Positions 37,653-52,181 of a stretch of 64,000 nt of DNA are shown piece by piece (the first letter of the stretch is position 1; every line of letters begins with the position of its first letter). The stretch spans positions 1,024,001 to 1,088,000 of the forward strand of contig CAWJCS010000006.1 of NCBI GenBank assembly GCA_963841435.1, given 5' to 3'. The notes under the pieces are model-generated. The model saw only the letters and a program-made list of their open reading frames with translations, had not been told where the DNA came from and ran no database searches. This stretch comes from an uncultured delta proteobacterium. Lineage in GTDB: Bacteria; Myxococcota_A; Polyangia; Polyangiales; Polyangiaceae. A program made the position numbers and the translations under genes.

Positions 37653-39503
37653 CTGATCGCGCCCGCCGAAGCCAAGCCGGAGCTTTCGAAATACGAGCTC
37701 TGCCGGGAGATCGGCCACGGCGGCATGGCGACCGTGTATCTCGCGCGCGACCGGCGCCTGGGGCGCGAGGTCGCGCTGAAGATCATTCACCGCCACCTGC
37801 GGGAAAATACCGAGGTCGCGGCGCGGTTCGCGAGCGAAGCGCGCGCCGTCGCGAAGCTCAAGCACCCCAACATCGTCGAGGTTTACGACGTTTCGGACGA
37901 GACCGAGCCGGAGCGTTATCTCGTGGTCGAGTTCGTGCGTGGCACCACGTTGCGGGCGCTCATGGCCGAGCACGAGCGCTTGCCGACCGAGATTGCGGCC
38001 ATCATCGGCGTCGAGGTCGCGCTCGGCCTCGGTCATGCTCACGACTTCGGCGTCATTCACCGCGACGTGAAGCCCGAGAACGTGCTGATCGCCGCGCCGT
38101 CTCTCGGCCAGTCTGCCGACCGTACGAGCTACCCGGACGATCCACTCGTCAAGATCACCGATTTCGGGATCGCGAAGCTGCTCGACGCGCAGGGCGTCAC
38201 GTCGACGGGCCAGGTGCTCGGTTCGCCCGCGCACATGGCGCCCGAGCAGATCGAGGGTGGTGACGTCGACGCGCGCTCGGACGTGTTCGGCCTCGGCGTG
38301 ATGCTCTACGAGTCGATGGTCGGTCGGCTGCCCTTCGACGGGAAGAACCCCGCGCAGGTGCTGCGCCGCGTGCTCGACGGCGCCTTCACGCCCCCCGACA
38401 AGGCGCGCCCGAGCGTGGGCGCGCAGTTTTCGGCCATCGTGTCGCGCGCGCTCGCGCACGAGCAGCCGGGTCGCTACGCGAGCGCGCAGGAGCTCGCCGA
38501 GGCGCTCAGGACCGAGCTCACGGAGCTCGGTTTCTTGGATTTACGCGGCGAGCTTCGGTCATTCCTGACTGATCCGGCCGCGTACAAGGCAGGTTACGAG
38601 GATCGCATCGTCGATAGGCTCGTGCGCCGAGCGAGCGACGCGCGGCTCACGCGCAACATCCCGCTCTCGGCGGCGTGCCTGAACCGCGCGCTCGCGATGC
38701 GCCCCGACGACGCCGACCTGCTCGCCGAGGTGTCGAGCCTCGGACGGGCCGAGCGGCTGCGCCGCAATCTGCGCACGGGCGCGCTCGCTCTCGGCGGCAG
38801 CGCGCTCGTGGCGGCGCTTTCGTTCGGACTCTCGAGCGTGCCCTCTCCAGGCGCACGCTCGAAGGCGGCACCGGCGGCCGACCCGTCCTCCGCGGCCCTG
38901 GGGAGCGAGGCCATGCCGCGCGCGTCCGCGTCCGGCGCCGCGCGCGCGAAGAAGAAGCGGACCGAGTCCGCCACCGACGACACGGAGGACGTCCCGAAGC
39001 GGCCCCCGCTCCGGCCGGCCGTCAACCGCACGCCCGAGCCTCCCGTCGAGGTGGAGCATGCGCCCGTTCGCATCGCCGTTGACGGACCCCAGAACGCCAC
39101 CATCCGCCTGGACGGCGCCGAGCTTCGCGATTGGTTCGGAACGCAGAGCATCAGCGTGGGCACCCACGTGTTCGAGTTCATCCCCCCGAACAGCGAGTGC
39201 TGCGAGGGTGCTCAGCGCCTGACCGTCGAGGTCCGCCCGCCGGCCGGCAACGGGGAGCCGCAGCGGGTTCGTGGCCGCATCGCCTTCAAAGGCGCCATGC
39301 TCGACCTCCGGGGCACTCCTGGGACGCGGGCGAGCTGCGGCGAGCTCGGGGAATTTCCGGTTCCGAGCCGGCAGACCTTCGAGATGGCCACGGCCGTGCG
39401 TCCGGCGCGCTGCACGCTCATCCCCTCGCCGGGAAGCGGTGCCCTCCCGAAAGAATTTGACGTCACCCTGAGCCCCGGCCGACTCTCGAGTATCGGCCCC
39501 TGA
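37653..39503 (+). CDS. Membrane Ser/Thr protein kinase (start uncertain, probably non-canonical)
   Basis: YELCREIGHGGMATVY, VALK, HRDVKPEN, DFG, GSPAHMAPE; TM helix; PEGA-like periplasmic part. Confidence 0.92.
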   Translation: MIAPAEAKPELSKYELCREIGHGGMATVYLARDRRLGREVALKIIHRHLRENTEVAARFASEARAVAKLKHPNIVEVYDVSDETEPERYLVVEFVRGTTLRALMAEHERLPTEIAAIIGVEVALGLGHAHDFGVIHRDVKPENVLIAAPSLGQSADRTSYPDDPLVKITDFGIAKLLDAQGVTSTGQVLGSPAHMAPEQIEGGDVDARSDVFGLGVMLYESMVGRLPFDGKNPAQVLRRVLDGAFTPPDKARPSVGAQFSAIVSRALAHEQPGRYASAQELAEALRTELTELGFLDLRGELRSFLTDPAAYKAGYEDRIVDRLVRRASDARLTRNIPLSAACLNRALAMRPDDADLLAEVSSLGRAERLRRNLRTGALALGGSALVAALSFGLSSVPSPGARSKAAPAADPSSAALGSEAMPRASASGAARAKKKRTESATDDTEDVPKRPPLRPAVNRTPEPPVEVEHAPVRIAVDGPQNATIRLDGAELRDWFGTQSISVGTHVFEFIPPNSECCEGAQRLTVEVRPPAGNGEPQRVRGRIAFKGAMLDLRGTPGTRASCGELGEFPVPSRQTFEMATAVRPARCTLIPSPGSGALPKEFDVTLSPGRLSSIGP

Positions 39504-39519: not shown

Positions 39520-40623
39520 ATGTGCTCCGCCCAACGGTCGATAGTGGTGGCGGCCTTCGCCGGAGTCCTGTGCGCCTCGTCGGTAGCGGGCGCAGAGGCG
39601 AAAGGTGCCGACGTGGCCGCGCCACCGGCACGCTGGCCGGCTGCGAAAACGCCCGCGAGCGCCGCGCCGCCGTCTGCCGGCAAGGCAACCGCCACAAGCC
39701 CGCCCGCCGGTGAGGCAGCGTCGGCGTCGTCGCCGGACGCCGATCTCGACGAAGAGGAGCTCAGCGACGAGGCCGAGCTTGCGCGCATCGTGGGTCTCGT
39801 GGGCGCTGCGCGCTACGAGGAATGTGCCGCGCGGCTCAGCGAGCTGCTCGGTCCGAAGAGCAAGCGTCCGCTCACGGATCCGGACGTCATAGAGACCGCG
39901 CGAATCTACGACGCGACCTGTCTCTTGGGCCTCGACAAGCCCGAGGCCGCCGACGAGCCGCTGCGCGCCGCCATCCGCAAGAACCCGCAGATGCGCGCAC
40001 CCGACAGCCTCGTGTTCCCGCAGAAGGTCGTCGACCGCTTCCTCAAGGTGCGCGAAGAGCTCTACAGCGAGCTCCGCGCCGCCGAGGCCCAGGCGATCGA
40101 CAAGGCGCGGCGCCAGGCGCGCGAGAAACAGCGGCGCGACAGCGAGGACTGGGCTCGCATGCTGCTGCTCGAGCGGCTGGCGCGCCAGGAGGTGCTGATC
40201 ACCAAGAACCACCGCTACATCGCGATGGTCCCCTTCGGTGTCGGCCAGTTTCAAAATGCCGACAAACCGCTCGGTTGGCTCTTCTTCGGAGCCGAAGCCG
40301 CGCTCGGCATCAGCGCGCTCACGTCGCTCGGCGTCCACAGCCACTTGCAGGCGCAGGCCGATCGCATCGCCTCGCGCGGCGGCGTGGCACCGGGTGTCGG
40401 TGATCGATTGCACGCCTGGTGGCTCGCGCTCAACGTGAGCACCTACGGGCTCATCGGCGTGGCGGCGGTCGGGATCACGCAGGCTCAGGTCGCGTTCGTG
40501 CCCGAGGTACGCACCGTGCGCGAGCGCAAGCTGCCGCCGTTGAATCGAGGCACGCTCGAGCTCGCGCCGAACGTCGCCGTGGGCGCGGGCGGGCTCGAGC
40601 TCGGGCTCACGGGGCGGTTCTAG
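39520..40623 (+). CDS. Secreted helical (TPR-like) protein with C-terminal membrane segments
   Basis: Signal peptide, helical domain, VPFGVGQFQN motif, ends LELGLTGRF. Confidence 0.75.
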   Translation: MCSAQRSIVVAAFAGVLCASSVAGAEAKGADVAAPPARWPAAKTPASAAPPSAGKATATSPPAGEAASASSPDADLDEEELSDEAELARIVGLVGAARYEECAARLSELLGPKSKRPLTDPDVIETARIYDATCLLGLDKPEAADEPLRAAIRKNPQMRAPDSLVFPQKVVDRFLKVREELYSELRAAEAQAIDKARRQAREKQRRDSEDWARMLLLERLARQEVLITKNHRYIAMVPFGVGQFQNADKPLGWLFFGAEAALGISALTSLGVHSHLQAQADRIASRGGVAPGVGDRLHAWWLALNVSTYGLIGVAAVGITQAQVAFVPEVRTVRERKLPPLNRGTLELAPNVAVGAGGLELGLTGRF

Positions 40624-41639: not shown

Positions 41640-42824
41640 ATGGATCGCATCGGCCAGTACGACATCGTGCGCCTGCTCGGCGAGGGCGGCATGGGCAAGG
41701 TCTACGAGGCGACCGAGCGCCTCTCGGGGCGGCGGGTCGCGCTCAAGGTGCTCAGGCCGGAGCTCTGCCGCTCGGAGCCGGTCCGGCGCTTGTTCGAGAA
41801 CGAGATGAGCATCCTGGCCGGGCTCGACCACCCGCACGTCGTGCGCTGTCTCGCCTGCGCCGAGGTGGACGGCGAGCTCATGATGGCGCTCGAGCTTTTG
41901 CCGGGGCGCACGCTGCGCGAGGTGCTGCGCGAAAAGGGGCGGCTCGACTGGGTCGAGGCGGCGGGGCTCGTCGGCCAGATCGCGCGGGCGCTCGGCGCGG
42001 CCCACGAGCACGAGCCGCCCATCGTGCACCGCGACTTGAAGCCCGAGAACGTGATGGTGCTCGACGACGGCACGGCGAAGGTCACCGATTTCGGGGTCGC
42101 GAAGCTCGTCGCGGCGCTCGGCTCGGCGACGACGCATAGCGTGGGCACGCTCGCCTACATGAGCCCCGAGCAAATCGACGCCGGGCCCGTCGATCAACGC
42201 AGCGATCTCTACGCGCTCGGGGTGGTGCTCTACGAGCTGCTCGCGGGCCAGCCGCCGTTTCAGTCGAGCTCGCCGCGTGAGCTTTTGAACCTCGCGTGCA
42301 CGGCGGCGCCGCCGCCGCTCGACGAGCCGGTGCGCCGCACGCTGCCGCGCGGCGTCGAACGGCTGCTCTTCGAGCTGCTCGAGAAGCGACCAGAGTCGCG
42401 CCCTGGGTCGGCGGCGGACGTGCTCGCGGCGCTCGAGCCGTTCCTGCCGGACGACGGCGACCCGAGCGCTCCGCGCCCGCGTTCGTCCCGCGAGCGAGCC
42501 GAGGCGCCCACGCTGCCGTCGGTGTCGTCGGGCGCCGGTGAAGAGGCCGAGGAGCCGTCCGGCGCGGCGAACGTGACCGGCAGCGACGCGGCGCCGTCGG
42601 GCGTGGGGGCCGCGCCGGCGCCGGCCAGGACGGCGCGGCGCGAGGACACGATCTTGCTGCTCGAAGGCCGGGCACGCGTGCCGCGCGAGCTGCCGCTCCG
42701 CACGGCGCTCGGCGTGATCGCGCTGGCGTCGGCGCTCGCCGGCATCGTCACGTATTTTTCCGCGCGGGGCGCGGATGCGCCGCGCGACGACCCCGGCGAG
42801 CTCATCGGCCGGAGCGGTCCGTGA
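41640..42824 (+). CDS. Membrane Ser/Thr protein kinase
   Basis: SD AGGAG; LGEGGMGKVY, VALK, HRDLKPEN, DFG, GTLAYMSPE; C-terminal TM. Confidence 0.95.
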   Translation: MDRIGQYDIVRLLGEGGMGKVYEATERLSGRRVALKVLRPELCRSEPVRRLFENEMSILAGLDHPHVVRCLACAEVDGELMMALELLPGRTLREVLREKGRLDWVEAAGLVGQIARALGAAHEHEPPIVHRDLKPENVMVLDDGTAKVTDFGVAKLVAALGSATTHSVGTLAYMSPEQIDAGPVDQRSDLYALGVVLYELLAGQPPFQSSSPRELLNLACTAAPPPLDEPVRRTLPRGVERLLFELLEKRPESRPGSAADVLAALEPFLPDDGDPSAPRPRSSRERAEAPTLPSVSSGAGEEAEEPSGAANVTGSDAAPSGVGAAPAPARTARREDTILLLEGRARVPRELPLRTALGVIALASALAGIVTYFSARGADAPRDDPGELIGRSGP

Positions 42825-44917
42825 CGCTGCGGGCCGCCGAGGCCGTCGGCGGCGCGCTCGTGGTGCTCGCTTCGCTCGGCGTGACGCTCATGGCGGCGCC
42901 GGTGGCGCGCCGCGGTGCTTCCGCGGGTGACGGCGGCCCCACGCCGAGCTCGCGGCTCTCGTTCGCGAGCGATGCGAAGGCGTGCGAGAGCTGCCACCCG
43001 AGGCAGGCGGCCGAGTGGCGCCGATCGGCCATGGCGCATGCCGCCGATTCACCGCTGTTCTTGGCGCTCGAGATGCTCGTCGAGGAGCAGATTGGGCGTT
43101 CGGCGGTGTGCCCCGAGGGCGGGGGCGTGCTCCGGGCGCCCGGCGAGGGGGCCTGTCGCGACCCCGCGAGCGGTGAGCTTCTCGCTGGGTCAGGGGGCGA
43201 AGGATTCTGCGTCAAATGCCACGCGCCCGCGCAGAGCCTCGCCGGGCCTTCCCCGTCCTGGGGTGCGCGCGAAGCCGATCGGTTGCCGCTCTCGCGCCTC
43301 CTCGCTGGCGCGGGGCGCGACGGGGTGGGGTGCACGCTGTGCCACGAGCTCTCGGTGCCGCACCGCGCGGCCGTGCGCGAGCGGGGCAACGCGACGTGGC
43401 GGTCGACGACGAGCGGAGCGCTCTTCTCCTTTCGTCCTGACGCGCTCGAACGGGAGGCCGGCGTGGCCAACTCCGGCTACGCGCTCGAGCCGGCGGTGCT
43501 TTTGGGAGCCGAAGGCGACGAACTCGTGCCGGGCGGCGCGCACCGGCGCATGACGGATGGGGAGCGCCGCTACCTCGGTTCGAGCAAGCTCTGCGGCACG
43601 TGCCACGACGTGCGGCTGTTCGGCACCGACGTCCTCGGGAGCGCGCGCGGCGAGCACTTCAAACGTCTGAGGAACGCCTACGGCGAGTGGCTCGACTACG
43701 CGCGCGAGCGCGAGGCGCGCGGCAAGACCGCGGCGTCGTGCCAGAGCTGTCACCTCTCGACGTTTCCCGGCGTCTGCGTGCCCGGGGCGGGGAGTGGTGA
43801 CGAGCCCGGGGCGCTCGCGGACGCCTGTCCCGAGGGGACGCACTTTTCGGAGCGAGAGCCCGGGGCGCTCGCGCGCGGCTTCGTCGCGACCTCCTCGCGC
43901 TCGAGCGCGCGCGTGCACCCGCATTTTTTCAGCGGCGTCGAGGTGCCGCTCGCGCCGAGCTTCGCGCGGGCGCTCGGCGACGAGAGCGTGCTCGACGCCG
44001 CGGGCACGCCGCTCGGAGCGCGCGCGCGTCGCGATCTGTTGCTCGCGCGGAGCGTCACGCTCACGCTCGGCGCCGTGGGGCGCACGGCGCGTGGCGTCGA
44101 GGTCCCCGTGACGGTCGAAAACGTGGCGGCGGGTCACCGCGTGCCCGCGGGTTTCAGCCAGGAGCGCGAGCTCTGGGTGCACCTTCGCGTCACCGACGCG
44201 CGCGGAAGCACCGTTTACGAGGTGGGACGCGTCGAGCGTCCCGACGAGGATCTCGCCGACAAACGTTTCGTGGCCGTTCGGACCGACGACGGCGAGCTCG
44301 ACGCGCTCGGGCGGCCGCTCGGCTTGTTCGGCGCGGATGTGGTCGACGGGCCCGACGTTCCGCGCTGGGACCCGCCACCCGACCGCGGCGGAACGCGCTT
44401 TTTCGGCCGGGGCCTCGCGAGCTTCCAGAACGGCTTTCTTCGCTGCGTGCGCTGCATCGGTACGATCGACGCGAGCGGCCGGTGTCAGCCGCTCTCCGGA
44501 CAGGAGGGCGCGCGCGCCGATCGCTTCGCCGACGGCGACTACGATCCGGAAACGGGCGAGTGCCGGTCGAACCTCGCTGGGCGCGAAGCACTATTCGAGA
44601 CGTACTTCCCAGTGGGTGCGCTCGACGCGACGCGCGGCATCGCCAAGGCGCCGGACGCCATCATCGACACGCGCTCGCTGCCGCCAGAACGTCCGGTGAC
44701 GTACGTCTACCGGCTCGACGCGCCGCCCGGTCCGCTCGTCGTCGAGGCGCGCCTCATGTTTCGCGCCTTTCCGCCGTATCTCCTGCGAGCCTTTGCCGCC
44801 TACGAGCAGCGAATGGCCGCCCTCGGGCGCCGCCCCGACGGGCCGCTCTTCGGCGAGGACGCGCTCGAACGGCTCGATCTCGTGGAGCTCGCGCGCGCGC
44901 GCGTCGTTGCGGACTGA
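42821..44917 (+). CDS. Multiheme (5 CxxCH) cytochrome c, c554-like, with C-terminal Ig-like domain
   Basis: N-terminal anchor; CESCH, CVKCH, CTLCH, CGTCH, CQSCH; HFFSG; AGHRVPAG. Confidence 0.88.
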   Translation: MTLRAAEAVGGALVVLASLGVTLMAAPVARRGASAGDGGPTPSSRLSFASDAKACESCHPRQAAEWRRSAMAHAADSPLFLALEMLVEEQIGRSAVCPEGGGVLRAPGEGACRDPASGELLAGSGGEGFCVKCHAPAQSLAGPSPSWGAREADRLPLSRLLAGAGRDGVGCTLCHELSVPHRAAVRERGNATWRSTTSGALFSFRPDALEREAGVANSGYALEPAVLLGAEGDELVPGGAHRRMTDGERRYLGSSKLCGTCHDVRLFGTDVLGSARGEHFKRLRNAYGEWLDYAREREARGKTAASCQSCHLSTFPGVCVPGAGSGDEPGALADACPEGTHFSEREPGALARGFVATSSRSSARVHPHFFSGVEVPLAPSFARALGDESVLDAAGTPLGARARRDLLLARSVTLTLGAVGRTARGVEVPVTVENVAAGHRVPAGFSQERELWVHLRVTDARGSTVYEVGRVERPDEDLADKRFVAVRTDDGELDALGRPLGLFGADVVDGPDVPRWDPPPDRGGTRFFGRGLASFQNGFLRCVRCIGTIDASGRCQPLSGQEGARADRFADGDYDPETGECRSNLAGREALFETYFPVGALDATRGIAKAPDAIIDTRSLPPERPVTYVYRLDAPPGPLVVEARLMFRAFPPYLLRAFAAYEQRMAALGRRPDGPLFGEDALERLDLVELARARVVAD

Positions 44918-44918
44918 C

Positions 44919-47141
44919 ATGGCGACGGACGGGCCTGCACTCGATCCTCGCGAGCTCGCGGCTGTGTTCACCCGGGCGCCGCTCGCCGCTCTCGACGCCC
45001 GGGGGCGCGCGGACCTCGCGCTCGCGGCGCGCGTGCGGCGCCTCGACCCCGGCACGATGCTGTTCGGCGGCGGCGCGACGGCCGATTCGCTCTTCGTCGT
45101 CGCACGAGGCGCGCTCGTGGTCGACGAGGAGGGCGGCCCGCGGACGCACGGTGAAGGGGAGCTCTTCGGTCGCGAGGCGCTCGTGCCGGGTGCGCGACGC
45201 TCGGGTGCGGCGGTCGCGCGCGAGTCGAGCGCGGTGCTCGAGCTGCCGCTCGGTGTGCTGCGCCGGGTGCTCGCACGCTCGGGAGCCGGCGCCGAGCTCG
45301 CGCGTGCGGAGCGCGACGCGCGTGCGGCGGCCTTCGGCCGGCTGGTTTCGGCGAGCGAGCTCGGGCGGAGCCTCGACGCGCCGGGCCGGACGCGCCTGCT
45401 CGGTGCGTTGCGCGAGGAGGCGCTTTTTCCCGGGCGCGTGCTCGTCGGGGCGGGCGCGCGCTCCGAGGTCGCGTACGTCGTGGCGTCCGGGCTCGTCGAG
45501 CTCCGCGCGACGGACGGCGGCCGCGTCTTCGTGACACGCGGGGAGCTCTTCGGGCTCGCTCAGGCTCTCTCGCGAGAGCCCTGGCAGGTGACCGTGACGG
45601 CGCTCGGCGACGGCGTGGCGCTCGCCGTTCCTCGCGACACCCTCGTTGCGCTCGAAGAGCGGCACCCGCGCGCCGTGCGCGCCGAGCTCGAACGCCAGGC
45701 GAGCCGCGGCGGGCGTCCGGGGGCCGGGTGGCGCGGCGGCTCGGCCCTGCCGACACGACGCGCCGAGGACGAGCTACCGCGCCTCGCGGCGGCTCGCTCG
45801 CTGCTCGCCATCGATCTTTCGAGCTGTGTCGAATGCGGACACTGCGCCGCGGCGTGCGCCGAGACCCACGGCAGCGCGCGCCTCTCGCGCCGGGGTCCGA
45901 AGACGACCGTGCTGGTGAGTGACGGGGCGGCGGTGCGCGCGCACGCTTTCGTCTTGCCCACGGCGTGCCAGCACTGCCGTGATCCCGTCTGCCTGCCGGA
46001 ATGCCCGACAGGCGCCATCGTGCGCAACGAGCGCGGCGCCGTGCTCGTGCGGGAGGCCGCCTGCACCGGGTGCGGTGCCTGCGTTTCGGCCTGTCCCTGG
46101 GATGCCGTCGCGCTCGTGCCCCGCGAGAAGGGGGTGCCCGAGCCGCCCGGCGTGGCCTCGGCCTTCGTGGCCGCCAAATGCGACCTTTGCGACGGCCGCG
46201 AGGGGCCCGAGTGCGTCGCGGCCTGCCCGACCGGCGCCATCCTCCGCATCGACCCCGAGCGCGAATTGCCCGAGGTGCGCGCGGCGCTCGCGCTTCTGCC
46301 TCGCCACGTCGAGAGGGCGACGGCCCCGCGTCATGCCCGGCACTGGCTCGTCGCGGGGGCGCTCGCGCCGCTCGCGCTCGCCGTCGTCACCGTGCACGTC
46401 ACCGCGCCGGCCACGCTCGGCAGTGGCGTCGCCGCGCTCGTTCCCTGCGCGCTCCTTTGCCTGCACGGCTGGGTGAAGCGTCGCGCCGCCGCACGCGCGC
46501 TCGCCGTTCGAATCGTGCGGCGGTTCGGCGCGGGCTCGGCGCTCCCGGCGCTTTTGCGCGTGCACGCGGTCCTCGGTGCGGCCGCGGCGGGGGCCGTTTC
46601 CTGGCACGCCGGTTTCATGCTTCACGCGGGCGTGAGCGGCGCGCTCGCTCTTTCATTTTTCGCCTCGACGCTGACGGGCGTGTTGGGCGCGCTCGGCTAT
46701 GCGTTCATCCCGAGGCGCCGTGCGCGCCTGGTCGGCAGGGGAGCCTTGCCGGAGGACGACGCCGCACGCCAAGCCGACCTCGAGCGGCAGCGCTTTCAGT
46801 TGCTCACGGGCCAGAACGCAGCCCTGCAGGCGCTCGCGCGCACGCTGCTCGTGCCTTACGCGTCGTCGCGCGTGGGCGCGCTCCTGCTTGCGCTCTCGAA
46901 GCGAACGTCCGGGGACGAAGTGCGTGCGCTCGAGGACCGCGTGAGCGCCATGCTCGGCGGGCGCTCGAGCGCTCGCCTCGCCGCGGCGCCTCGCCTCGTC
47001 GAGCTCAGCGTCGCCTTGCGCCTGCTCCGGGCGGAGCGGTACACGAGCCTCGCGCTGCGCGCCTTCGTGCCGCTGCACCTGGTGCTCGCCGTTCTCGTCG
47101 GGGCGCTCGTCGTCCTGCACGTCGTCGGGGTATCGTCGTGA
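44919..47141 (+). CDS. Tandem cNMP-binding + NrfC/DmsB-like 4x[4Fe-4S] + diheme-b-type membrane domain protein
   Basis: GELFGREAL..ARRS and GELFGLA cNMP folds; CVECGHCAAAC, CQHC....CLPECP, CTGCGACVSACP, CDLC......ECVAACP; two H-X13-H helices. Confidence 0.88.
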   Translation: MATDGPALDPRELAAVFTRAPLAALDARGRADLALAARVRRLDPGTMLFGGGATADSLFVVARGALVVDEEGGPRTHGEGELFGREALVPGARRSGAAVARESSAVLELPLGVLRRVLARSGAGAELARAERDARAAAFGRLVSASELGRSLDAPGRTRLLGALREEALFPGRVLVGAGARSEVAYVVASGLVELRATDGGRVFVTRGELFGLAQALSREPWQVTVTALGDGVALAVPRDTLVALEERHPRAVRAELERQASRGGRPGAGWRGGSALPTRRAEDELPRLAAARSLLAIDLSSCVECGHCAAACAETHGSARLSRRGPKTTVLVSDGAAVRAHAFVLPTACQHCRDPVCLPECPTGAIVRNERGAVLVREAACTGCGACVSACPWDAVALVPREKGVPEPPGVASAFVAAKCDLCDGREGPECVAACPTGAILRIDPERELPEVRAALALLPRHVERATAPRHARHWLVAGALAPLALAVVTVHVTAPATLGSGVAALVPCALLCLHGWVKRRAAARALAVRIVRRFGAGSALPALLRVHAVLGAAAAGAVSWHAGFMLHAGVSGALALSFFASTLTGVLGALGYAFIPRRRARLVGRGALPEDDAARQADLERQRFQLLTGQNAALQALARTLLVPYASSRVGALLLALSKRTSGDEVRALEDRVSAMLGGRSSARLAAAPRLVELSVALRLLRAERYTSLALRAFVPLHLVLAVLVGALVVLHVVGVSS

Positions 47142-49114
47142 CCGAGCGAGCGCGAGCGGGGACGCGCCGAGCGGCGCTCGGCCGCAGCGACGGCGACGTT
47201 CGTCGCTTCGCGGCGCTCGTTCCGGCGCTCGCGCTCGGCGCGGCCGTGCTCGTCGCCGGGCTCGCGATGCTCGACGGCCCAGGCGCGCTCGTTTCGCCGG
47301 GTCCGCTCGCCCCCGCGCACCGCGCGCTCGGGTGCTCGGATTGCCACGCGGCGGGGCGCGCCGAGGCGAGCTGCGGCGGCTGCCATGGCGCCCACCCCTC
47401 GGAGCGCGCCGGCCACCGCGCCCTCGTCGCCGCGGGCAAGCTCGGCTGCAGGTCGTGCCACGCGGCTCACGACGGAGGGCGTGGCGTGCGGTTCGAGCCG
47501 GATGGGCGCGTCGTGTCGTACGGCGGGGCGCACGAGGTCGAGCTCGGCGAGCGCGGCGCAACGGGGCTCCGCGCCGCGCTCGCCGTGCCGTTCGTTCCCG
47601 CGCGCCGCTGCGAACGCTGCCACGACCTTGGCCGAGCGAGCGATGCGGCGGCGCACTGCGTGCTCCCCGGCTCCTCCCGCGACGAGCCCATCCTGTGCTT
47701 CGACGAGCATCGCGCTCCCGCGCGGGCGAGCGCGGCGACGCCGGCCGAGCGGGACGCGGTGCTCGAGCTCGCGCGGGCGGCGGCGCGCGTGGCGCCCGGC
47801 GCGCTCTCGGCGCGTATCCTGGGCGCGCACGGCGTGCTGCTTGCGGCGGCCCTGGCCGGCGCGCTCGCCTTGCTCGCGCGAGGTCGTCGTGCGCCCGTCC
47901 CGCGACCGGTCGTTTTCGAGCCGGGGGCGGCCCGCCGGTTGCCCGTGATCGATGCCACGCGCTGCCTCGGATGCCACGCCTGCGCCGACGCCTGTCCGTA
48001 CGAGGTGCTCGAGATCCGTCGCTACGTCGCGGTCGTCGCGCGCCCCGACGCCTGCACGGGCGCGGGCCCCTGCGAGGAACGCTGTCCGAACGGCTCGCTC
48101 ACGCTGGCGGAGCTCGTTTCAGAGGACGCGCGCCCGGCGGCGCCCGAAAGCACGCCGCTCGAGCGGGCCCCCGGCCTGTTCGTCGCAGGTGACGCCGCGG
48201 GCGGCGCGCTGATCGCGCGGGCGCTTTCCGATGGCGCAGCCGTCGCCGAGACCGTCGTCGCGCGACAAAGGAGCCTGTCCGGCGTCGGGCCCGCCGACGC
48301 CTTCGACCTGCTCGTCGTCGGGGCGGGCCCGGCGGGTCTCGAGGCGGCGCTCGGCGCCAATCGGCGCGGCGCCCGCGTGCTCGTGCTCGAGCAGGCGAGC
48401 ATCGCCGAGAGCATTCGGCGCTTCTCGCGCAAGAAGCTCGTACTGGATGCCGGCCCGCGTGGCAGGTCCCACGAGCTCTTCGCTGGCGACGTCGAAAAAG
48501 AGGAGCTGATCGAGCGCTGGCTGTACGGCGTGCGCGCGGCGCGGCTCGACGTGCGTGAAGGTTTGCGCGTCGTCGACGCGACGCGCGTCGCCGAGGGCGG
48601 CTTTTGCGTGCGCGCGGTTGACGGTGGGGGGAAAGGGCGGGCATTTGCGGCGCGTCTCGTGCTCGTTGCCGTGGGTCGCCGCGGCACGCCGAAGAAGCTC
48701 GCCGCTCCCGTCGCCGATGCCGCCGTCGGTCGCGTGCACTACGAGCTCGCCGACGCGCGCGCCTTCGCCGGGCAACGCGCGCTCGTGGTCGGGCTCGGCG
48801 ACGTCGCCATGGAGACGGCGCTCGCGCTCGCGGCGCAGCCGGGTACCGAGGTTACCGTCGTCCATCGTGGTCAGGGTTTCGGCCGTGGTCGAAGGCGCAA
48901 CGTCGAGGCGCTCTCCCGGCTCGTGGCGCGGGGCAGGGTGGGGCTCTTGCTCGCGGCTCGAGTCGTCGCCGTCGAGTCCGACCGCGTCCGCATCGACGCG
49001 AAAGGCGGGCCAGCCGCCCTCGCGTACGACGCGTTGTTCGTCGCCATCGGATCGATCCCGAACGATGTCCTCGTCACGAGCGATGGCGTTGCGTTCGGTA
49101 CGAAGAGCGGCTAA
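47138..49114 (+). CDS. Tetraheme cytochrome c + ferredoxin + FAD/NAD(P)H oxidoreductase fusion
   Basis: PGPLAPAH; CSDCH, CGGCH, CRSCH, CERCH; TM; CLGCHACADACP, CTGAGPCEERCP; GLFVAGD, VVGAGPAG, VVGLGDVA, HRGQGFGR. Confidence 0.88.
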   Translation: MTERARAGTRRAALGRSDGDVRRFAALVPALALGAAVLVAGLAMLDGPGALVSPGPLAPAHRALGCSDCHAAGRAEASCGGCHGAHPSERAGHRALVAAGKLGCRSCHAAHDGGRGVRFEPDGRVVSYGGAHEVELGERGATGLRAALAVPFVPARRCERCHDLGRASDAAAHCVLPGSSRDEPILCFDEHRAPARASAATPAERDAVLELARAAARVAPGALSARILGAHGVLLAAALAGALALLARGRRAPVPRPVVFEPGAARRLPVIDATRCLGCHACADACPYEVLEIRRYVAVVARPDACTGAGPCEERCPNGSLTLAELVSEDARPAAPESTPLERAPGLFVAGDAAGGALIARALSDGAAVAETVVARQRSLSGVGPADAFDLLVVGAGPAGLEAALGANRRGARVLVLEQASIAESIRRFSRKKLVLDAGPRGRSHELFAGDVEKEELIERWLYGVRAARLDVREGLRVVDATRVAEGGFCVRAVDGGGKGRAFAARLVLVAVGRRGTPKKLAAPVADAAVGRVHYELADARAFAGQRALVVGLGDVAMETALALAAQPGTEVTVVHRGQGFGRGRRRNVEALSRLVARGRVGLLLAARVVAVESDRVRIDAKGGPAALAYDALFVAIGSIPNDVLVTSDGVAFGTKSG

Positions 49115-49125
49115 CTCATCGTGCC

Positions 49126-50091
49126 ATGGGACTTGGAGCAGCCAGGAAGACGGTTCTTGTGGCAGGCGCCGCGGGCTTTCTCGGCTCGCACTTGGTCGAT
49201 CGCTTGCTCGACGAAGGCTACGAGGTCGTGGGCCTCGACAACCTGATGACGGGCGACCTCGTGAACCTGTCGCGCGCCGCGCGCGACCCGCATTTCCACT
49301 TCCAGGCCGGCGACGTGCGCGAGCCCATGCACGTCTACCCGCAGGTGATCTTCAACTTCGCCTGTCCGGCGTCCCCCAACCACTATCAGCACGATCCCTA
49401 CGCCACCTTCACGACGAGCGTGCTCGGCGCCCAGAACCTCATCCAGATGGCGCGTGGTCGCAGCTGCACGATCATCCATGCCTCGACCTCGGAGGTCTAC
49501 GGTGACCCGACGGTCCACCCGCAGACGGAAAACTACTGGGGCAACGTCAACCCGATCGGCGAACGCGCCTGCTACGACGAGGGCAAGCGCGGCGCCGAGA
49601 CGCTGCTCATGGACGCGAGCCGGGTCTGGAAGCTCGACACGCGCATCGTGCGCATCTTCAACACCTACGGTCCGCGCATGGCCTTCAACGATGGGCGCGT
49701 GGTCTCGAACTTCATCGTGCAGGCGCTCGAAAATCGGCCCGTCACGCTGTTCGGCGAGGGCAAGCAGACGCGCTCTTTCTGCTTCGTCAACGACCTCATC
49801 GAGGGCTTCGTGCGCGTCTCGCGGCTCGACCGGCTCGACGGACCGATGAATCTCGGCAACCCCGAGGAATTCACGATCGTCGAGCTCGCCAACGAGGTCA
49901 TTCGCCTGACGGGCTCCCGGTCGACCCTCGAGTTTCGGCCCTTGCCCGCCGATGACCCCAAGCAGCGCCGTCCAGACATCGGCAAGGCGCGGAGCCTGAT
50001 CCAGTTCGAGCCCAACATCGAGCTTGCCCAGGGGCTCGAGCGCACCATCAAGGACTTCAAGGAGCGCCTGACCGAACGCCGCCCCACATGA
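49126..50091 (+). CDS. UDP-glucuronate decarboxylase (UDP-xylose synthase)-like extended SDR
   Basis: GAAGFLGSH, ACPASP, ASTSEVYGDP, YWGNVNPIG.R.CYDEGKR, RIFNTYGP, DDPKQR.PDI. Confidence 0.93.
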   Translation: MGLGAARKTVLVAGAAGFLGSHLVDRLLDEGYEVVGLDNLMTGDLVNLSRAARDPHFHFQAGDVREPMHVYPQVIFNFACPASPNHYQHDPYATFTTSVLGAQNLIQMARGRSCTIIHASTSEVYGDPTVHPQTENYWGNVNPIGERACYDEGKRGAETLLMDASRVWKLDTRIVRIFNTYGPRMAFNDGRVVSNFIVQALENRPVTLFGEGKQTRSFCFVNDLIEGFVRVSRLDRLDGPMNLGNPEEFTIVELANEVIRLTGSRSTLEFRPLPADDPKQRRPDIGKARSLIQFEPNIELAQGLERTIKDFKERLTERRPT

Positions 50092-50573
50092 GGCGTCGGC
50101 TCGTCATCGGCGCGCTCGAGCCCGTCAACATTCCGGCCTGGGGCGTGTTCGGAATCGACGCACGCGTCGATACGGGGGCGCTCACGAGCGCGCTGCACGT
50201 CGAGAACCTGCGTGAGCTCGGCGGGGGGCGCGTGGCGTTCGACGTGCGCGTGAAGGCTCGCGGCAGGGGAGCGACGACGGGCGTCGTCGCGACGGTGGCG
50301 CGCCGCGGTCGGGTGCGCTCGTCGAACGGCGGACTCTCCGTTCGCTTGTTCGTCGCCGCGCGCGTGCAGCTTGGCCCCGTGCTCCGGCGCGTCGAGGTCG
50401 GGCTCGTCGACCGCCGGAGCATGACGTACCGCATGTTGCTGGGGCGAACGGCCCTCGCCGGCTACTTTCTCGTCGACCCCGCCGCGGAGCGAACGCTCGC
50501 TAGCCGTCGCCCGAAACCAGCGCCCGCGTCGCTCAGAAAGCGAGCTTTGACGCGCCGACCTGGTTCCGCTTGA
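50088..50573 (+). CDS. RimK-associated retropepsin-like protease (DUF785/RimB type)
   Basis: ARVDTGALTSALH, VRSSNG, DRRSMTYRMLLGR. Confidence 0.85.
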   Translation: MRRRLVIGALEPVNIPAWGVFGIDARVDTGALTSALHVENLRELGGGRVAFDVRVKARGRGATTGVVATVARRGRVRSSNGGLSVRLFVAARVQLGPVLRRVEVGLVDRRSMTYRMLLGRTALAGYFLVDPAAERTLASRRPKPAPASLRKRALTRRPGSA

Positions 50574-52002
50574 GCGAGGCCTTGTCGCGCTCCGCTCGCT
50601 CGTCGGCCGCGATGCTCGCGGGCGGCTCGGCAAAGCCTTCGCGCGCGGCGTCGAGCGCTTCGAGCTGCCGGTCGAAGCGGCGCCCGAGCGCAGCGACCTC
50701 GCCCTTCGGTGCGGCGGCGACGGCCGCAGCGCGGCTCTGTTGGACCTCGGCGGCCTTCTGGGCGACGCGCCGGCGAGCGCCTTCGCTATCGCCCTTGCGG
50801 AACAGCTCGTTGGCGTCGGTGAGGGCGACGGTGGTGGTGCTGCGAGCGACGCGTTCCTCGACGAGCGGATCGATGCGCGAGCGCGAGCCGTCGCTCGTGA
50901 ACGCCACGAACAGGCGACCATCGCAGGTCGCGTCGTGACCATCCCTGAGATCGGTGTAGTCGAGGTGGGCGTTCAGAACTTCGCGGTCGCCGGGCGCGCC
51001 GCCGTCCACGCGCAAACGCGCGAGCAGCGTCCGCTCCTCGCCGGCCGACATGATGCCGAGGTCGACGACGACGCGCGAGCCCTCTCGCCGGAAGCTGCGG
51101 TCCGCGACGTCCAAGAGCTCGACGCCGGGCGCGAGCTCGAGCGAGAGTGACACGTCGCGCGCGACCGAGCGCTCGAGCCCTCCGAGCTCGCGCTCGAACA
51201 CGCCGGCCAGGCCCGCCGGGCCCTCGACGAAGTGGTGGTTGCCGTTGGTATTGGCGGCGATCGCCGCCATCATCTGCTCGTTGTAGTCGACGCCGAGCCC
51301 GATCGTGCTGATCGTCGCGCCCGCCGCGCGGACCCGCTCGGTGAAGCGTCGCATGCCGTTCACGCTGGTTTCGCCGCGCGTCGCCTGCCCGTCGGAGAGC
51401 AAAAGGACGCGGCTCACGAACCCCGCGCGCTCCCGCAAGAGGTCGGCGCTCTCTTCGAGCGCACACGAAATGCACGTGTCGCCGCCCGACGTGATGCCGG
51501 AGAGCGCCCGCTCGACGCGCTCGCGGCTCGAGGCGTCAACCGTGGTCGGCGACACGAGCACGCGCGCGGTCGTCTGGTAGTCGATGACGCTCACGAGGTC
51601 GCCATCGCGGAGCTTATGCGTGGCGCGCTTGGCCGCGTCGATGGCGTCGTCGAGCTTCTTGCCCTCCATCGAGCCCGAACGGTCGATGAGGATCGAAAGG
51701 TGCCGGTGCGACTCGCGCCCGATGGCGGAGCGGTCCGCTCGAACGGCGATGAAGGCGAATTCTTCCTGCTCGCTGCCGGCCGGCAGGCGCGCGTGCCCGA
51801 GCCGCCCCTCGATGCGCAGAAGATCGCCCCCCTCGAACACCGGGCCGCGGGTGCTGGTCGGGACGAGCGGACGATCGGGACGGCGGGGTGCGGTGCGTTC
51901 CGAGCCCACCGAGCGTTCGGGTCGAGCCGAAAGCGAGCGGACGCCGAGGCTCGTGACCAACATTCCCAGGGCGGCGAGCGCCCCCACGGTGCGAATTTTC
52001 AT
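50533..52002 (-). CDS. von Willebrand factor A domain protein
   Basis: MIDAS DRSGSM, GGDT, LLSDGQA, TIGLGVDYNE; N-terminal signal; SD GGGAG. Confidence 0.88.
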   Translation of the reverse strand: MKIRTVGALAALGMLVTSLGVRSLSARPERSVGSERTAPRRPDRPLVPTSTRGPVFEGGDLLRIEGRLGHARLPAGSEQEEFAFIAVRADRSAIGRESHRHLSILIDRSGSMEGKKLDDAIDAAKRATHKLRDGDLVSVIDYQTTARVLVSPTTVDASSRERVERALSGITSGGDTCISCALEESADLLRERAGFVSRVLLLSDGQATRGETSVNGMRRFTERVRAAGATISTIGLGVDYNEQMMAAIAANTNGNHHFVEGPAGLAGVFERELGGLERSVARDVSLSLELAPGVELLDVADRSFRREGSRVVVDLGIMSAGEERTLLARLRVDGGAPGDREVLNAHLDYTDLRDGHDATCDGRLFVAFTSDGSRSRIDPLVEERVARSTTTVALTDANELFRKGDSEGARRRVAQKAAEVQQSRAAAVAAAPKGEVAALGRRFDRQLEALDAAREGFAEPPASIAADERAERDKASLKRNQVGASKLAF

Positions 52003-52181
52003 GGCTGTCTCCCGAGAACGCTCGACGGGCGAAAGGCTTACAGCCGACCCGAAGCGGCCGGATTTCTGTATCGTCGAGCGGAGCTTCCCTACGCGCGACG
52101 CTGGCGGAGGATCTGGCCCCTGTCCTCGGGCCCGAGGCAAAAGAGACCTTCGAGTCTTTTGAGGACGCCCCGAGCTCTTCG

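Follow-up and report, generated by a model that had tools for sequence, protein, structure and literature searches.

What do four tightly packed genes of a myxobacterium build when together they encode a protein kinase, heme proteins, iron-sulfur (Fe-S) proteins and a flavoprotein? The genes, termed G1 to G4 here, occupy positions 41640-49114 on the forward strand of a 64,000-nucleotide stretch of DNA from an uncultured delta proteobacterium of the family Polyangiaceae (assembly GCA_963841435.1, contig CAWJCS010000006.1, positions 1,024,001 to 1,088,000). The whole stretch is referred to as the window, and positions are given within it. A preliminary description, made from the sequence alone, had proposed that the four products form a regulated electron conduit across the membrane. 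The cluster is real and conserved, and by its composition it is a variant of an already noticed, uncharacterised gene set named ptd. Its best-supported reading, to which we assign a probability of roughly 55%, is that of an inner-membrane-spanning, ptd-like redox complex providing an electron wire from NAD(P)H. This reading draws on the cofactor motifs and their conservation, the logic of the topology, gene order, co-occurrence, and the existence of split and fused forms.

In the proposed path, NAD(P)H would reduce flavin adenine dinucleotide (FAD) in the cytoplasmic half of G4, and electrons would then move through the ferredoxin clusters of G4 to the four [4Fe-4S] clusters of G3. The membrane would be crossed via two bis-His b hemes held between helices 3 and 5 of G3. 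From there electrons would pass to four bis-His c hemes in the periplasmic loop of G4 and, last, to the five hemes of G2, which would serve a periplasmic or extracellular acceptor. G1, together with a pseudokinase found in most G2 orthologues, would tie the complex to Ser/Thr-phosphorylation signalling, and the cyclic-nucleotide-binding (CNB) fold domains of G3 would add a second, ligand-type input. The inventory of cofactors fits the order first suggested (NAD(P)H, FAD, Fe-S, two b hemes, nine c hemes), and the motifs concerned are invariant or nearly so in alignments of G2, G3 and G4 with their relatives.

The four frames abut and are co-oriented, and both frames and junctions are exactly as first described. 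G1 (394 aa, 41640-42824) and G2 (698 aa, 42821-44917) share a GTGA overlap at 42821-42824; the TGA of G2 is followed by one base (44918) and then by the ATG of G3 (740 aa, 44919-47141); and G3 and G4 (658 aa, 47138-49114) overlap in a second GTGA at 47138-47141. Independent public gene calls arrive at the same 740 aa for G3 and 658 aa for G4. The guanine-plus-cytosine (GC) content is 0.72-0.78 across the locus and 0.86-0.93 at third codon positions in all four frames. A scan for promoters and terminators returned no promoter-like site and 6 terminator-like sites where 3.7 would be expected, a result that is uninformative in such GC-rich DNA. Membrane helices predicted from hydropathy agree with their earlier placement: G1 has a single C-terminal one and G2 a single N-terminal one, G4 has two, and several fall in the final third of G3.

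The putative entry point and part of the exit of the wire are found on one polypeptide, G4, for which 254 relatives were collected at E <= 1e-20, most of them 620-720 aa long. Its first part (aa 1-245, 47138-47872) begins with a conserved cytoplasmic motif and contains two membrane helices (aa 27-45 and 227-245) with a predicted periplasmic tetraheme loop between them. The CXXCH motifs at aa 66, 79, 104 and 158 are kept in 25 of 25 aligned relatives, and His 61, 93, 111 and 191 are invariant in the same 25 sequences; four heme-attachment motifs and four further invariant histidines fit four bis-His hemes. A fifth CXXCH string, at aa 276, is part of an Fe-S motif. The second part (aa 269-658, 47942-49114) combines a ferredoxin, with ligands C276/279/282/286 and C306/T307/C312/C316, and a thioredoxin reductase (TrxR)-type FAD/NAD(P)H flavoprotein (Pyr_redox_2/3 at about 1e-21, with Pyr_redox_3 at 3.5e-21; Fer4_10 at 2.1e-7). 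The flavoprotein has the FAD GxGxxG motif and an NAD(P)H-binding fold without a redox CxxC. Its nearest solved proteins are the ferredoxin-NADP reductase (FNR) 3ab1 (1.4e-10) and Bdr 7a7b (2.5e-10). The YpdA model TIGR04018 matches at 2e-22 with 79 bits against a cut-off of 340, so that G4 is no YpdA equivalog. By sequence, the flavoprotein appears closest to TrxR-type FNRs and YpdA. A stretch of the form HRxxxFxR resembles the NADPH 2'-phosphate site of thioredoxin reductase.

The FAD domain of G4 (48164-49114) also looks circularly permuted. In thioredoxin reductase the GD motif ends the FAD domain. In G4 a GD motif (aa 346-357) precedes the GxGxxG motif (aa 395-400), and the protein ends at an LFVxIG element. 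Moreover, in seven of eight matches a 63-residue piece of G4 aligns, at weak E values of 0.015-0.67, with the part of solved flavoproteins that holds the GD motif; in protoporphyrinogen oxidase and thioredoxin reductase this part is close to the C-terminus. The permutation is suggested by this motif order and alignment. Stand-alone flavoprotein homologues at two loci of other Myxococcota families (L086 and L088) are matched by the Pfam profile in the same truncated manner as G4.

G3 would carry electrons from the flavoprotein through the membrane. Its full architecture recurs, at 33-49% identity, in more than 149 database proteins, of which the few named ones belong to Polyangiaceae, Minicystis and Labilithrix. 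The preliminary description had assigned to G3 two cNMP-binding domains, four Fe-S clusters and a diheme-b membrane part, and each of these has a counterpart in the alignments: two PF00027 matches, 16 invariant cysteines and four invariant histidines. The N-terminal portion (aa 1-285, 44919-45773) consists of two cytoplasmic CNB domains (cNMP_binding at 1.1e-24 in two stretches, beside 4Fe-4S families in the rest of the protein) whose nearest solved matches are the regulatory domains of PKG and PKA. The fold itself is certain from these matches. The two CNB domains are followed by a ferredoxin (aa 296-448, 45804-46262) in which C303/306/309/313, C350/353/358/362, C382/385/388/392 and C421/424/432/436 are conserved in 22 of 22 sequences. 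Sixteen cysteines in four motifs indicate a four-cluster ferredoxin of the NrfC/DmsB/HycB type. The best NCBIfam matches, DsrO (1.1e-21), HydN (1.5e-18) and DmsB, all fall below cut-off, so the ferredoxin is a domain relative and no named subunit; the PDB match is HycB4 (1.5e-26). Whereas NrfC/DmsB-type ferredoxins are usually exported by the twin-arginine (Tat) system or enzyme-bound, that of G3 lacks a Tat signal. Since no export signal is present and the ferredoxin comes after the CNB domains in the chain, it is placed in the cytoplasm.

The remainder of G3 (aa 473-739, 46335-47135) is a membrane domain, the putative diheme b wire. It contains exactly four histidines that are invariant in 22 of 22 sequences: H549, H563, H720 and H734. 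In an AlphaFold2 model (predicted local distance difference test, pLDDT, 82) the domain has five helices and a cytoplasmic helical insert, with H549 and H563 on helix 3 and H720 and H734 on helix 5, the last; each pair is spaced i/i+14. Helices 2 and 4 are each followed by a positively charged loop on the Fe-S (cytoplasmic) side; given a cytoplasmic Fe-S domain, the two helices that bear the histidines both point outward. In the model, H549 and H720 would form the pair close to the cytoplasm, H563 and H734 the one close to the periplasm. A stacked pair of bis-His b hemes is a classic arrangement, known from NADPH oxidase (NOX), cytochrome b and MsrQ, and by analogy the G3 domain putatively holds such a pair. 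When each of 21 aligned membrane domains was scanned with Pfam, DUF4405 was matched by 7, Ferric_reduct by 5 and Ni_hydr_CYTB (prokaryotic cytochrome b561) by 2; these are the three families matched by most members, each below threshold, and all are heme-b membrane families. Binding of heme b via four central His residues has been demonstrated for a DUF4405 protein (PMC11334425). The ESM Atlas names its cluster 'Ferric reductase like' at 0.90, which was treated as a lead only.

The same domain admits a second interpretation, namely that the diheme part forms a quinol/quinone site like those of NarI and FdnI. G3 would then belong to an alternative respiratory branch joining the quinone pool to periplasmic cytochromes or to NAD(P)H. 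A cytoplasmic four-cluster ferredoxin on a diheme b anchor is indeed the NarH-NarI layout, and the sub-threshold Ni_hydr_CYTB matches and the respiratory character of the best NCBIfam matches of the ferredoxin lean the same way. No quinone-site motif was identified in G3, and Pfam and NCBIfam searches of the four genes gave no catalytic molybdo- or Ni-Fe subunit. In addition, the c-heme loop of G4 is placed for direct heme-to-heme hand-over, which would make a quinone unnecessary. The quinone-linked interpretation is thus considered improbable. The lack of molybdopterin, NrfA and NrfD subunits had been pointed out beforehand, and the molybdopterin, NrfD and Cytochrom_C552 families gave no match at E <= 0.01 in Pfam or NCBIfam for the four genes.

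The outermost component of the electron wire would be G2, which has the five CXXCH motifs first attributed to it (aa 55, 130, 171, 258 and 307). These are kept in 29-30 of 30 aligned relatives and follow an N-terminal membrane helix (aa 8-26). G2 has no Pfam match above threshold. Its AlphaFold2 model (pLDDT 85.7) comprises an alpha-helical domain for the five hemes and, at the C-terminus, a beta-sandwich, and a Foldseek search places the Thermochromatium tepidum pentaheme c552 (5ze8; E 4.8e-12) far above other solved proteins. The two structures align with Z 19.5 and a root-mean-square deviation of 3.6 over 351 of 385 residues at 22% identity. Although phmmer with G2 alone found no match in the PDB, a profile of its relatives matched 5ze8 (3e-14) and MccSep (7.6e-6). 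From the model and the profile, G2 is assigned the c552/PHC fold. The PHC family includes Geobacter ExtKL/MccSep and the PHCs of cable bacteria (PMC11976967). G2 differs from these proteins in being about 250 residues larger and membrane-anchored. Where c552, MccSep and MccA have the His of an SxHA motif, G2 has Met71.

Two enzymatic roles were considered for G2 and rejected. The Geobacter multiheme selenoprotein MccSep is described as a polysulfide reductase whose heme 2 has a Cys ligand and whose catalytic residue is Sec325 (bioRxiv 10.1101/2025.11.18.688581). No non-heme Cys is conserved across the G2 family; in the profile alignment an invariant Phe445 stands at the Sec325 position of the D-G-U-P loop and Ala-Tyr at that of C239-C240. 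Without the catalytic Sec/Cys and the Cys heme ligand, a MccSep-type sulfur reductase is ruled out, and G2 shares the fold of MccSep, not its chemistry. NrfA was likewise set aside, with no Pfam match at E <= 0.01 and PDB profile matches at E 0.02-0.03 only. G2 has a conserved GHxxPxG loop from the beta domain, and its candidate distal ligands are M71 (26/30), H241 (28/30), H368 (30/30) and H439 (30/30). As these are four family-wide candidates for five hemes, one heme may be open or variably ligated. Separately, distant pentaheme relatives from a search of protein sequences share the loop in the form GHxxPxGF, and several have lipoprotein-like signal peptides.

Are the four genes kept together? 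A scan of one genome per species yielded 30 loci with full-length G3 relatives. Those with a lineage given are all of Polyangia type (Labilithrix, Sorangium, Enhygromyxa, Nannocystaceae and metagenome-assembled genomes of Polyangiaceae). Where the flank measures 2.2 kb or more (24 loci), G2 lies upstream of G3 in 23, L009 being the exception; where it measures 4.5 kb or more (19 loci), a G1 homologue lies upstream in every case, and its strand is the same in 18. Of 23 loci with 2.3 kb or more of downstream sequence, 22 have G4 at 200 bits or higher, with a distance of 400 nt or less in 16, and Pfam finds it in the 23rd (L033). Among 61 genomes of the family, 25 have G2, G3 and G4 and 30 have none of them. 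The six partial cases comprise three with G2 and G4 only (two fragmented assemblies and one 73% complete), one with G2 and G3 only, its match at a contig end, and two whose sole match is G4-like and partial. The G3 membrane domain was matched in at least 37 of 401 genomes of the phylum, a count that is a floor because it comes from a stricter first look.

Beyond these loci, among other families of Myxococcota, the modules recur as genes of their own and in other combinations. At L086 and L088 a membrane protein of 311-332 aa adjoins a multiheme c cytochrome, and a divergent ferredoxin-flavoprotein is 33% identical to the cytoplasmic half of G4. At L089 an FHA-FHA-CNB-CNB-Fe-S protein stands beside an FHA/cyclase-like protein, with a membrane-domain match just downstream followed by a multiheme c cytochrome. 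The metagenome contig L147 encodes a G2-like pentaheme, a further multiheme cytochrome, a CNB-CNB-Fe-S protein, an FHA-FHA-tetraheme-ferredoxin-flavoprotein and a 290-aa membrane protein that aligns with the G3 domain (hhalign 98.7%, E 2.8e-16) with the His pairs in register. Judged from sequence, such splitting, fusion and reordering is what one expects of the subunits of one machine. Where the preliminary description had pointed to a neighbourhood search, gene order was found to be kept in the 30 Polyangia-type loci and the modules to recur in distant lineages. It could still be argued that the genes are neighbours by descent only and have no joint function, since all closely syntenic loci come from one class and shared ancestry inflates the synteny. 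Against this, the flanks beyond the cluster vary from locus to locus, the genes are gained and lost together, the modules reappear rearranged in distant lineages, and a fusion of G4 with a conserved neighbour exists (see below). Mere descent is accordingly regarded as very improbable.

How would such a wire be connected to phosphorylation? G1 matches Pkinase at 8.6e-54, and all five Hanks-type motifs (G-loop, VAIK Lys, HRD, DFG and APE) are present in recognisable form in its translation, as LGEGGMGKV, VALKVL, HRDLKPEN, DFG and SPE. It is thus an active-looking Hanks-type Ser/Thr kinase by sequence. A single predicted membrane helix (aa 355-373) is followed by a short periplasmic tail, in line with the membrane kinase first described. 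Most G2 orthologues are 890-1130 aa long, and their surplus is an N-terminal kinase-like domain that is 34% identical to the G1 kinase over 210 residues (E 5e-21), with the HRD and DFG motifs replaced. HRD is absent in 10 of 10 long orthologues, and a pattern scan returned one DWG and two G-x-G-x-x-G strings, which are read as chance. By these motifs the domain is classed as a pseudokinase. It is missing from G2 of the window and from a few relatives (P0136 and L028). Two FHA domains are fused to the G3-like protein of L089 (2843-5041) and to the G4-like protein of L147 (10232-12949). The suggested link to Ser/Thr phosphorylation thus recurs as kinase, pseudokinase fusion and FHA fusion, and these additions point to phospho-Thr signalling.

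Beside the cluster, a second Ser/Thr kinase of 592 aa is encoded 2 kb upstream at 37725-39503 (+). A 42%-identical homologue is found upstream of the cluster in L016, and the open reading frame (ORF) at 39520-40623 likewise has a homologue there.

The same additions support the main rival to the electron wire, a redox or ligand sensor. Here the periplasmic cytochromes would report their redox state, or a small ligand bound at a G2 heme, across the membrane to G1 via the pseudokinase; electron flux would merely poise the sensor, and the output would be phosphorylation and no electron export. A kinase-like domain without HRD and without a convincing DFG or G-loop in all 10 long G2 orthologues would suit such a relay, as would the presence of G1 at 19 of 19 loci, the FHA fusions in L089 and L147, and a possibly open G2 heme. 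On the other hand, the full chain from NAD(P)H through FAD and Fe-S clusters to hemes, with about 17 redox centres, far exceeds the needs of a sensor, the pseudokinase is lacking in the window's own G2, in P0136 and in L028, and the ptd clusters as listed in the available portion of their preprint include no kinase (bioRxiv 10.1101/2023.11.21.568154). As the main alternative, a sensor is held to be distinctly less probable than the electron wire.

The direction of flow through the wire was also weighed. Outward flow is favoured by the potential of NAD(P)H and by the membrane potential. In the reverse case, periplasmic or extracellular donors would reduce the c hemes and electrons would run inward to ferredoxin or NAD(P)+. 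In principle the chain can be reversed, TrxR-type FNRs catalyse the reaction either way, and the many other multiheme cytochromes of the genome could feed it. Inward uptake would run against the membrane potential and, for most donors, against the redox potential, and Pfam and NCBIfam searches gave no energy-coupling subunit among the four genes. It is considered unlikely, and outward transfer by a membrane-spanning complex is the reading retained.

Several observations weigh against the electron-wire reading. The first concerns the complex itself. A multimer prediction, proposed as a check in the preliminary description, was run three times with G3 aa 285-740 and G4 aa 1-345, together with controls. 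The score was 0.57 (runs 0.56, 0.57 and 0.62) against 0.00 for the best control, the runs agreeing in at least 87% of contacts with a partner pLDDT of at least 81. The mark used is reached by 116 of 157 solved complexes and by 2 of 215 mismatches, and passing scores of 0.60 or less were obtained by 18 of the 157 solved complexes and by both passing mismatches. The prediction therefore lends weak support to a G3-G4 complex, and this weakness is counted here. The second concerns heme b: the family matches of the G3 membrane domains are all sub-threshold, and the model has five helices where the ferric-reductase domain (FRD) and DUF4405 have six. Foldseek found nothing for the model in the PDB at E <= 0.001, and a wide fold search (VIA) gave only coiled-coil or long-helix matches with Z <= 9.1, one designed two-heme protein among them (Z 8.3). 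Thus no solved diheme cytochrome b was recovered by the model; the searches gave no evidence that the fold is new.

Two further points concern substituted residues in the window. At 48056-48058, G4 encodes Thr307 in its second Fe-S motif, where at least 90% of relatives complete a CC pair with a second Cys. The tetraheme/membrane/Fe-S/FAD-NAD(P)H composition claimed for G4 otherwise stands, and the second site could hold a 3Fe-4S or a differently ligated cluster. In G3, the phosphate-binding cassettes of the CNB domains are degenerate. The cassette residues known from PKA and CAP, Gly-Glu ... Arg-(Ser/Thr/Ala), were compared in 22 sequences. In domain 1 the Gly is kept in 22, Arg94 in 21 and Glu at the Glu position in 13, with Arg at that key position in the window; in domain 2, 9 of 22 sequences keep Arg at the key Arg position, where the window has Trp. 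The two CNB folds of the preliminary description are thus retained, and the gating by cyclic nucleotides that it attached to them is not supported here.

The remaining points come from gene content. Locus L009 has G3 and G4 without G2 or G1 within 3.7 kb upstream, and the Sorangium loci have inserts between the genes. A same-genus genome (G420; 96% complete, 690 contigs) has no match to G2, G3 or G4, from which the cluster looks accessory within the genus. Among 80 metagenome loci with distant G2-like cytochromes (L093-L172), collected with an alignment of the distant pentaheme relatives and many of them short, G3 or G4 homologues were found nearby in one only, L147; the G2-type cytochrome therefore appears to be used in other contexts too.

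Outside G1 to G4, the flanking ORFs with Pfam matches encode a kinase, an epimerase, a Zn-protease-like protein and a VWA-domain protein. The last (50533-52005, also delimited as 50533-52140, - strand; VWA 3.6e-16) has a signal peptide and a DRSGS metal-ion-dependent adhesion site (MIDAS) motif and is predicted to be secreted. In the window it is displaced and inverted, lying 1.4 kb downstream of G4 on the opposite strand, with the epimerase gene (49126-50091) and the Zn-protease-like gene (50088-50573) in between. Across the related loci, tblastn matches to it were found in 19 of 30. It directly follows G4 in L006, L007, L029 and L033, as checked by ORF and Pfam, and the 1110-aa database protein P0364 is a G4-VWA fusion. 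The periplasmic VWA protein is thus a fifth conserved partner, and apart from it the 30 loci have no additional gene in common. Elsewhere, the genome holds many multiheme cytochrome ORFs, including a cluster at C2:146940-155842 with 4, 22, 12 and 12 CXXCH motifs, one ORF with 10 (C3:28185-29699) and others with 8, 8 and 7. Such cytochromes could extend the electron path past the periplasm.

If the path works as proposed, it would offer a quinone-independent route for cytoplasmic reducing power to the periplasm, and it would make use of a membrane cytochrome family of barely known function. The fusions of pseudokinase with cytochrome and those with FHA domains suggest a redox machine coupled to phosphorylation signalling of a eukaryote-like kind, a link that would be new among bacteria. 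The ptd gene set is also placed in a new phylum with cultured strains (Labilithrix luteola, Sorangium and Enhygromyxa salina), and the existence of these carriers makes it experimentally testable.

How does the cluster compare with known systems? The closest is ptdABCDEFG, named from marine Alphaproteobacteria UBA11136 in a preprint on marine oxygen-deficient zones. The authors assign it no function (bioRxiv 10.1101/2023.11.21.568154). PtdA is a c552-related pentaheme with a beta-sandwich, PtdB a porin, PtdC an FAD/NAD(P) oxidoreductase, PtdD a periplasmic tetraheme, PtdE a cNMP-binding Fe-S protein, PtdF a ferric-reductase-like membrane protein and PtdG a decaheme; the hosts are Alpha- and Gammaproteobacteria, Nitrospirales and Planctomycetes (bioRxiv 10.1101/2023.11.21.568154). 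Compared by description only, five of the seven parts are alike. PtdA corresponds to G2, with its five CXXCH motifs and its likeness to 5ze8 (Z 19.5; profile E 3e-14). PtdC and PtdD correspond to the two halves of G4, and PtdE and PtdF to G3, each pair being a single polypeptide here; the membrane part of G3 matches only sub-threshold Ferric_reduct/DUF4405. Going by the same description, the porin PtdB and the decaheme PtdG have no counterpart in the cluster, two flanking ORFs without Pfam matches not having been checked for beta-barrels. As far as the ptd description goes, the cluster differs further in that G2 is anchored in the inner membrane, in the addition of the kinase, the VWA protein and, in most relatives, the pseudokinase, and in its host, a Polyangia-type myxobacterium. 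A literature search returned no description of the myxobacterial cluster and the name ptd in one preprint only. The statement that no characterised system has such a composition still holds, although, going by the preprint's gene list, the same composition had already been named. By sequence, the cluster appears to be a ptd-like, conserved trans-membrane redox module in a new phylum.

Other systems share its layout or its principle. The Tmc-, Hmc- and Dsr-type complexes of sulfate reducers and NarGHI likewise combine periplasmic multiheme c, a membrane cytochrome b and cytoplasmic Fe-S proteins. In contrast to them, no HdrD-like CCG protein, NrfD-type subunit or molybdoenzyme was found in the four genes, and the cytoplasmic end here is an NAD(P)H flavoprotein. 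With NOX, ferric-reductase-domain proteins, MsrQ and DUF4405 the shared principle would be a cytoplasmic NAD(P)H flavoprotein that feeds two stacked bis-His b hemes across the membrane, and the G3 His pairs on helices 3 and 5, spaced 14 apart, recall NOX and FRD proteins. Tentatively, and with less confidence than the wire itself, the cluster could be seen as a bacterial counterpart, built from unrelated parts, of a phosphorylation-controlled NADPH oxidase, in which the receptor-like pseudokinase-cytochrome and its partner kinase would switch on and off, or read out, NAD(P)H-driven electron export. Were this so, social and predatory myxobacteria could use it for redox signalling, for reactive species or for the reduction of extracellular substrates. 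The two designs differ in that the dehydrogenase here is of TrxR type and on another polypeptide, with six Fe-S clusters interposed, and in that NOX ends at O2 outside, whereas the outer side of the cluster would end in nine c hemes.

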